DNA of 64,000 bases, from sequence record OR880646.1; one strand, 5' to 3'. This document shows, piece by piece, positions 3,173-4,591 of the stretch (positions are counted from its first letter, which is position 1; each line of letters opens with the position of its first letter). A model generated the notes under the pieces. It did no database searches. It had not been told where the DNA came from and worked only from the letters and a program-made list of their open reading frames with translations. The DNA is from Escherichia phage ECP2301. The position numbers and the translations under genes were made by a program.

Positions 3173-4591
3173 TTATGGATAGGTATAGATGATACCAGTT
3201 TCTAAAGCAGTTTTATGAATGATGTATCCATTACGTGATTCTTGAACATCAACTTCTGGATAGTCTTTCATCATCTTCTGAAGGGTGTAACGATGCAGGT
3301 AGTATTTACTATCTGGATCTTCAGTTTTCCAATCTTTACCTTCTTCGGTCATTTTTTGGATTTCATCCATAACCCACCAGCCGCACCAGATATAAGCCGA
3401 AGTACGATGTGGAAGAGGATGAACATAAGGCAATTCACCTTCTGGTTCTGGAGCAACTTTATCAGTTACCTGAACTTGACCTTCTGCTGTGATAGTTTTG
3501 CTATCATAATCAGTAGCAGTAACAGTTGCAGTAACTTCAATAGTTTGACTTCCAATAGATGATGTATCAACGGTGTATACATTAGTTGACCCTTCTACTG
3601 GAGAAGAATCTTTCTTCCATGAATATTCAATTTGAGCTTCTTCTGGAGCATCAGTGACATTAGCAGTAAATGTAGCCGAAGCATCTTGCTGAACGTTAAT
3701 AGAAGGAGGAGTCAATGTAACCTGTGGATTCATTGTCTTCTTATTAACTGTTAATGATACTTCATTAGAAGTAACTTCCTTTTCATTGTAATTTTCTGCA
3801 GTTACTTGAGCTACACACTTAACTGTTTTAGCTCCAACTGTGGTAGGAGTATAGTTAAATGTAGTAGTAGTTTCTCCATCGACCAGAGAACCGTCAACAT
3901 ACCACTGATACGTAGCAGACGCTCCTGGTGGCTGTGAAGCCAAGGCAGCAGTAAATTGAACTGGGGTTCCAATTACCCCGGCAGCAGGATTAGCAGGAGT
4001 TACGGCTAACGTAGTTGTCTGTGTCTTCTTATTAACTGTTAATGACACTTCATTAGAAGTAACTTCCTTTGCATCATAATCTGCCGCAGTTACTTGAGCT
4101 ACGCACTTAATTGTTTTAACTCCGCTTGTGTCAGGAGTGTAATTGAATGTAGCGTCAGTTGCTTCGCTTACAGGAGAACCGTCAACGTGCCATTGATACG
4201 TAGCAGATGCACCTGATGGCTGTGAAGCTAAGGCAGCGGTAAATTCAATTGGAGTTCCAATCACTCCAGCATCAGGGCTACCAGGAGTTACAGCTAAAGT
4301 AGTTGTCTGTGTCTTATTTTGAACTGTGATAGTTGTACTAATTTCTGCTGTTTCAGGTTCAGATTCTGCAACTTGATTGGTTGCAACGACTTTAATAGTC
4401 TTTTGACCGGCAGGTCCTTTTAGTACATAACTAAAAGTTGCTGACGTTTCTTCCTGCGGAGCGTCGTCTACAGTCCAAGCATATGTAATAGGTCCATCTC
4501 CAGTTTGACCACTGGGTGTAGCAGTAAACTGCTGAGTCTGATCTATAACTCCAGTAGGTGTTTTAGGAGTTATATCAACTGTAAAAGTCAT
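3173..4591 (-). CDS. hoc: Hoc outer capsid protein, enlarged by tandem Ig-like domain duplication
   Basis: 472 aa vs 376 aa in T4; Ig-like repeats; C-terminal capsid-binding region conserved; position between 24.3 and inh. Confidence 0.85.
   Translation of the reverse strand: MTFTVDITPKTPTGVIDQTQQFTATPSGQTGDGPITYAWTVDDAPQEETSATFSYVLKGPAGQKTIKVVATNQVAESEPETAEISTTITVQNKTQTTTLAVTPGSPDAGVIGTPIEFTAALASQPSGASATYQWHVDGSPVSEATDATFNYTPDTSGVKTIKCVAQVTAADYDAKEVTSNEVSLTVNKKTQTTTLAVTPANPAAGVIGTPVQFTAALASQPPGASATYQWYVDGSLVDGETTTTFNYTPTTVGAKTVKCVAQVTAENYNEKEVTSNEVSLTVNKKTMNPQVTLTPPSINVQQDASATFTANVTDAPEEAQIEYSWKKDSSPVEGSTNVYTVDTSSIGSQTIEVTATVTATDYDSKTITAEGQVQVTDKVAPEPEGELPYVHPLPHRTSAYIWCGWWVMDEIQKMTEEGKDWKTEDPDSKYYLHRYTLQKMMKDYPEVDVQESRNGYIIHKTALETGIIYTYP
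3735..4310. repeat. Tandem direct repeat, 2 x 288 bp (in-frame Ig-domain duplication inside hoc)
   Basis: Unit starting gtcttcttattaactgttaatga at about 3735 recurs at about 4023; encoded 96-aa units are near-identical (KTQTTTLAVTP...SNEVSLTVNKK). Confidence 0.85.

Follow-up and report, generated by a model that had tools for sequence, protein, structure and literature searches.

Hoc (highly immunogenic outer capsid protein) of phage T4 is a dispensable decoration protein that binds the center of the gp23 hexamer and adheres to mucin glycans (PMC10385173, PMC11853027). Its 180-Å fiber comprises three Ig-like domains mounted on a capsid-binding domain that is conserved (PMC10385173), and the number of Ig-like domains in its homologs is known to range from 1 to 10 (Fokine et al. 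2023, PMC10385173). The Hoc of Serratia phage Muldoon, which belongs to a far more distant lineage, spans 1174 aa with 10 such domains (PMC10385173); compared with it, the Hoc analyzed here represents a one-unit step inside a single genus. Variants that differ by whole Ig domains are also encoded by PhiPNJ-9 (PMC11853027) and vB_Eco_EH2, but these have fewer domains, whereas the present one has more, and hoc of PhiPNJ-9 shares only ~65% nucleotide identity with T4 hoc.

The DNA under study is a 64,000-nt stretch of Escherichia phage ECP2301 (OR880646.1), referred to below as the window; over 20 kb it shares ~98% identity with two members of Tequatrovirus, Shigella phage ESh26 and Escherichia phage ime09. 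The window's Hoc has domain 1 (D1), domain 3 (D3), a near-identical C-terminal domain and the inh/24.3 position in common with T4 Hoc (376 aa; PDB 5vf3, 8t1x). The difference lies in domain 2 (D2): T4 carries one D2 unit, a B>A mosaic by the diagnostic sites described below, while the window carries two, designated c1 and c2. The same architecture and unit order are found in the Hoc proteins of ime09 (AEK12435.1, 472 aa), HP3, pSs-1 and AR1. The hoc genes of ime09 and the window are distinguished by point differences and a few short patches only, such as c1 nt 109-111; AR1 Hoc has a B1-type second unit and a D1 that is 2 aa longer than that of the window. The Hoc proteins of UGKSEcP1 and UGKSEcP2 (568 and 570 aa) contain a window-like array with one extra B>A mosaic unit between its ends.

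The two-copy architecture is already public and annotated, in some genomes for more than a decade (AR1, ime09). A literature search found no explicit description of a 472- or 568-aa Hoc in Tequatrovirus, and no paper presenting the D2 array as a recombining polymorphism of one, two and three units; what it did yield was the general variability of Ig number (PMC10385173) and a three-domain variant (PMC11853027). This polymorphism is an incremental population-genetic description and not a new type of system.

Gene identity and domain layout

The minus-strand ORF at 3173-4591 encodes 472 aa and encloses a 288-nt tandem repeat in frame. In a phmmer search it matched T4 Hoc (PDB 5vf3_Z, 376 aa) with E=1.3e-244 in two stretches, query residues 1-181 aligning to T4 residues 1-181 and residues 189-472 to T4 residues 93-376; because of this two-stretch alignment, the extra 96 aa correspond to T4 domain 2 (residues 93-188). 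The Pfam search returned PKD with 39.3 bits (cut-off 23.5), together with sub-threshold Ig_3, Ig_2 and I-set. The ORF order rnlB-24.2-24.3-hoc-inh-uvsW in the window is that of the annotated ime09 locus and follows the T4-like arrangement. Full-length homology, a string of Ig-like domains, the conserved C-terminal domain and a T4-like position were thus all found, and they support the assignment of the gene as hoc with an in-frame tandem extra Ig-like domain 2, giving four Ig domains against T4's three. An earlier note, made from the DNA letters, had proposed an in-frame tandem 288-bp repeat that gives two 96-aa Ig-like units and a 472-aa Hoc versus 376 aa in T4. Repeat searches, the ORF itself and the PDB 5vf3_Z sequence confirm this description, and the comparison with T4 Hoc confirms that the domain counts differ.

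All features of the gene lie on the minus strand. D1 (aa 1-92; 4316-4591) forms the distal tip of the fiber; it is modeled as a β-sandwich with pLDDT ~90 and is the most variable domain. It is followed by the first repeat unit, c1 (aa 93-188; 4028-4315), an A-type paralog of D2 that groups with the first copies of other alleles, and by c2 (aa 189-284; 3740-4027), a B2-type paralog that groups with their second copies. D3 in T4 numbering (aa 285-380; 3452-3739) aligns to T4 Hoc residues 189-284 and has Pfam Ig_3 and I-set matches over residues 289-373. The capsid-binding C-terminal domain (aa 381-472 plus the stop codon; 3173-3451) aligns to T4 Hoc residues 285-376 almost unchanged.

A model of the 472-aa protein was built with AlphaFold2 from 27 two-copy alleles (mean pLDDT 83). 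It contains four all-beta domains over residues 1-376 with pLDDT of ~88-96, a separate domain being formed by each repeat unit. The modeled C-terminal domain was poor (pLDDT <50 at residues 379-403), so the overall geometry of the model is unreliable. The top PDB matches in a Foldseek search were four-Ig ectodomains, namely Sidekick Ig1-4, Dscam1 Ig1-4 and ICAM-5 D1-D4 (E~1e-13).

Divergence, ancestry and frequency of the two copies

A repeat search of the window located a direct repeat of two 288-nt copies, 3734-4021 and 4022-4309, that are 83% identical, and Tandem Repeats Finder reported 3734-4327 with a period of 288, 2.1 copies, 83% matches, 0 indels and a score of 822. Placed in codon register, the repeat resolves into c1 and c2 of 96 aa each, both starting with KTQTTTLAVTP and ending with SNEVSLTVNK. 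The two units differ at 50 of 288 nucleotides (82.6% identity), 25 of these differences falling on third codon positions, and at 21 of 96 amino acids (78% identity). By NG86, dS between them is 0.46, dN 0.13 and dN/dS 0.28; the chance of 238 matches in 288 positions from base composition alone is ~1e-89. The copies had been described as nearly identical and of high identity, which in view of these values is overstated.

To place the copies among those of other phages, units were taken from 12 two-copy and 10 one-copy hoc alleles. Identity between phages was 81-99% for c1 with c1 (mean 88%) and 82-100% for c2 with c2 (mean 89%), against 73-83% for c1 with c2 (mean 77%). In the neighbor-joining tree the c1 units form one clade, 'A', and the c2 units another, 'B', with 100% bootstrap, also when third codon positions alone are used, and the order is A then B in 12 of 12 two-copy alleles. 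The window's c1 has 94% nucleotide identity to c1 of HP3 and of ime09, and its c2 97.6% to c2 of ime09 and to the single unit of fPS-65. Since the two clades separate with full bootstrap support, the A/B split is older than the diversification of the sampled alleles, which are as little as ~88% identical. Judging by these relationships, the A/B pair was inherited by this phage and not made in its genome.

When hoc was compared by megablast with 50,697 phage records, 655 of them matched. The best match was ime09, with 97.6% identity and an identical gene length of 1419 bp, followed by EPIMRB01, U115, pSs-1, HP3 and others. For copy number, 60 rows were taken at even steps through this ranking of 655 records, and 53 of them could be classified: 25 (~47%, a figure drawn from redundant GenBank records and not from a population sample) have two units (1418-1425 bp), and 28 have one unit (1130-1161 bp). 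Three-unit alleles were absent from these 53 Tequatrovirus records. Among the best 120 clusters in a large protein database, 80 have 376 aa, 29 have 472 aa and 8 have 568-570 aa, the last group being three-unit alleles such as those of phages UGKSEcP1 and UGKSEcP2. With the two-copy form also seen in ime09, HP3, pSs-1 and AR1, the window holds an ordinary, common two-unit hoc allele, neither recent nor private.

The c1-c2 identity of the window is the highest of the 12 two-copy alleles (82.6% versus 74-80%), and 8 of its 11 window-specific changes make one copy match its paralog. At c1 nt 109-111 (window 4205-4207), TCT (Ser) stands in place of the AAC (Asn) of the six closest c1 units and equals the state of the window's own c2; a short tract of gene conversion could be the cause, as could import from a different allele carrying GASATY. 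Gene conversion between the window's own copies was considered and is no more than hinted at, as the sites at 109-111 count as a single event and c1 units of other phages have identical states. Exchange between phages explains the paralog-matching changes equally well. Short conversion or exchange tracts may be the cause of the window's top-ranking c1-c2 identity.

Recombination and origin of the domain 2 array

We consider it very probable that the window carries a common two-unit allele of a copy-number-polymorphic D2 array, composed of old A and B2 paralogs and changed by in-register recombination. Two routes would operate. Unequal homologous crossover between diverged units would collapse or expand the array and leave chimeras, and in-register recombination could take place at the short, conserved linker found at the end of each Ig domain (TV-x-N/K-KT). 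In consequence, the population holds alleles of one, two and three units, with 376, 472 and 568 aa. In the window the product is a Hoc fiber in which the conserved capsid-binding domain carries four Ig-like domains.

The linkers are consistent with the second route. All three domain junctions of the window carry ACAGTT...AAGACA (aa T-V-x-N/K-K-T): the D1/c1 linker at 4310-4327 reads ACAGTTCAAAATAAGACA (T-V-Q-N-K-T), and both the c1/c2 linker at 4022-4039 and the c2/D3 linker at 3734-3751 read ACAGTTAATAAGAAGACA (T-V-N-K-K-T). The c1/c2 junction combines the left part of the c2/D3 junction with the right part of the D1/c1 junction. A junction of this composition is the signature of in-register whole-domain duplication, and the linker provides a fixed-frame microhomology for gain or loss of whole domains.

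Evidence for the first route comes from the one-copy alleles, which were typed by 12 nearly fixed A/B diagnostic nucleotides. By these, L004 is pure A and fPS-65, RB6, RB51 and L002 are pure B; teqhad, T4_ev240 and G50 are A>B chimeras, and RB55 (identical to T4's own D2), L003 and JE01 are B>A mosaics. The single unit of teqhad follows ime09 c1 across nt 1-218 and ime09 c2 across ~nt 241-288, with one difference in each segment, and its flanks are 98.6% identical to those of ime09; as both the chimeric unit and the flanks fit unequal homologous crossover, teqhad is read as a collapsed two-unit allele. The B>A mosaics, including T4's D2, could have arisen by equal crossover of one-copy A and B alleles with copy number unchanged, and for that reason they alone are no proof of a copy-number change. 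HP3, with two units, and Yersinia phage fPS-65, with one, have hoc flanks that are 100% identical over 840 nt; the array therefore turns over faster than the rest of hoc.

The unit types found in the array are A, B1, B2, B>A mosaics and a rare divergent 'C' (P0060). Two-unit alleles comprise the subsets A-B1 (AR1, PYps55T, slur04 and others) and A-B2 (the window, ime09, HP3, pSs-1). The three-unit allele of UGKSEcP1 consists of an A unit (98% to ime09 c1), a B>A mosaic and a B2 unit (98% to the window's c2), and further three-unit compositions are A-B1-B2 and A-B1-(B>A). Loss of domains was also found. The 281-aa Hoc of vB_Eco_EH2 (OZ034684.1, L040 601-1446) has D1 fused in register to D2 at ...GPITYAW/YVDDSQVGGE... 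and keeps two Ig-like domains only, a deletion through recombination between paralogous domains. A distant Hoc clade from IMG/VR (L005, L006, L007, L008, L011; ~47-57% identity) has lengths of 282, 377 and 472 aa, a series that stems from an independent D3-type duplication (L005, L006) and D2 loss (L011), with a KKTM-type junction linker. Copy numbers of one, two and three, the teqhad chimera and the HP3/fPS-65 pair are together what an array subject to unequal recombination would display. The earlier suggestion that the locus is recombination-prone thus stands at the level of the phage population, while the recent event that was proposed along with it does not.

A recent tandem duplication in this phage's own lineage could account for the window having the highest c1-c2 identity among the 12 alleles and for the 8 of 11 changes that match the paralog, and yet we regard it as refuted and extremely improbable. 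The copies are neither near-identical nor absent from close relatives: they are 17% divergent at the nucleotide level with the dS given above, about half of the sampled Tequatrovirus records have two copies, and orthologous c1 and c2 units, in a bipartition with 100% bootstrap, are present in the nearest phages (ime09, HP3, pSs-1) as well as in the distant AR1. Short tracts of conversion or exchange, like that at c1 nt 109-111, account better for the raised identity. An assembly artefact is more improbable still, to the point of being negligible. Collapse or expansion errors yield identical copies and not copies of 83% identity, the 50 differing sites place reads unambiguously, and the reading frame is intact; moreover, independently sequenced phages have matching copies that are 94-98% identical to those of the window, and the structure recurs in dozens of independent genomes.

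The origin of the A/B pair allows more room. A linker crossover between diverged one-copy A and B alleles in a mixed infection would have joined units that were already different, so that the pair would not go back to duplication within a single genome with later divergence, and the c1-c2 divergence would not date the event. Pure-A (L004) and pure-B (RB6, RB51, fPS-65, L002) one-copy alleles do exist, joining of an A end to a B start would be allowed by the linker microhomology, one three-unit allele resembles a foreign unit inserted into an ime09-like allele, and recombination is very frequent in T4-like phages. Pure one-copy alleles are, however, equally expected from collapse with crossover in the conserved unit ends, and even a crossover of this kind would be old and shared and not recent in this phage; we view such an origin as a serious but minority possibility. 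D1, D2 and D3 are mutually only 27-37% identical, and the D2 of the distant IMG/VR clade is too different for rooting the A/B split. It is less likely again that a three-unit A-B1-B2 array was ancestral in Tequatrovirus and gave the two- and one-unit forms by serial deletions. ERZ27275837, P0005 and P0006 do carry A, B1 and B2 in that order, and the two-unit alleles fall into exactly the A-B1 and A-B2 subsets. Nevertheless, three-unit alleles are uncommon (8 among the best 120 clusters, 0 among 53 sampled records), an A-B1-B2 array is also obtainable by one unequal crossover of A-B1 with A-B2, and the compositions of other three-unit alleles differ. The preferred reading remains an old A and B2 pair within a recombining array of variable copy number.

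Several further hoc variants were encountered. vB_EcoM-RPN187 has a hoc span of ~852 nt, similar to EH2. The 386-aa Hoc of vB_EcoM_G50 (NC_054917.1, L038 301-1461) contains a 30-nt (10-aa) tandem micro-duplication, NEKEVTSNED/NEKEVTSNEV, inside its A>B chimeric D2 unit. In P0060 (472 aa), a two-unit allele, the second unit has diverged strongly (KAQTTTLAVTPASPAAVEIGTATTFTANVSNQPASAVIAYTWKVDGSTISGQ...) and is of neither A nor B type; this 'C' unit suggests import from a more distant hoc. The D1 region of the window (4316-4591, the first ~273-276 nt of hoc) is ~96% identical to the 5' end of hoc in RB69 and vB_EcoM_DalCa, the remainder of whose hoc has no megablast-level match to the window, an indication that phage genera have exchanged the distal Ig domain. 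For the IMG/VR sequence L014, the single ORF picked out has 1039 aa, against a Hoc match of 551 aa.

Selection, likely function and database records

Among ten 472-aa alleles, pN/pS was 0.37 for D1, 0.27 for c1, 0.20 for c2, 0.13 for D3 and 0.02 for the capsid-binding domain, the latter having 99.4% amino acid identity among alleles. Predicted loops make up 47% of a unit and hold 15 of the 21 amino acid differences between c1 and c2. Purifying selection together with this loop bias indicates that both copies are kept functional, with somewhat different surfaces.

A natural Hoc variant without D3, that of PhiPNJ-9, binds MUC2 via D2, the key residues being S183, L184 and T185 (PMC11853027). Two S-L-T tripeptides are present in the window's Hoc, one at residues 183-185 and the other at 279-281. 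Across 27 aligned alleles, T185 is retained in at least 90% and the remaining five positions do not vary. By domain count, the 472-aa fiber would reach roughly 22 nm, exceeding the 18 nm of T4 by the length of about one Ig domain (~4-4.5 nm), and it would offer a second, slightly different D2 surface for glycan or mucin adherence. A longer reach or a higher avidity is a plausible effect of the extra domain. More tentatively, the D2 array could be a recombination-driven cassette locus: co-infecting phages would reshuffle the number and type of units at a higher pace than the flanks diverge, and so tune fiber length and glycan or antibody recognition to animal and mucosal environments. We hold this to be unlikely; if true, it would make the array a capsid-surface counterpart to tail-fiber mosaicism, of which the literature search turned up no description.

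The window itself is of little weight, being a frequent deposited allele of a protein whose variation in Ig number is published. Of greater use are the natural 376-, 472- and 568-aa alleles with near-identical flanks (HP3, fPS-65). They constitute ready near-isogenic material, suited to tests of fiber length and D2 number against mucus adherence, immunogenicity and display capacity. Such tests matter for phage therapy and for platforms that use T4 Hoc in display and vaccines.

Some of the records compared have irregularities of their own. Several GenBank hoc spans are off by 1 nt (1132, 1418, 1420), and in other records hoc is split or unannotated. The T6 record (MH550421.1, L034) lacks a CDS for its 1132-nt hoc span, in which the longest ORF has 186 aa; hoc of BYEP02 (L039) is split in two, and FriedrichMiescher is annotated with 'Hoc part 1/part 2'. 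Such off-by-one and split records are due either to sequencing errors or to genuine frameshifts in a gene that is dispensable. MG010123.1 ('Staphylococcus phage SAJK-IND', 32 kb) contains a T4-like hoc that is 93% identical to that of the window, and the record is therefore probably mislabeled or contaminated. P0033 bears the name 'endonuclease [Shigella sonnei]', and for several Hoc clusters the stated source is an E. coli assembly. The RefSeq taxonomy of HP3 (NC_041919.1) is 'Rosemountvirus', and its hoc locus is Tequatrovirus-like.
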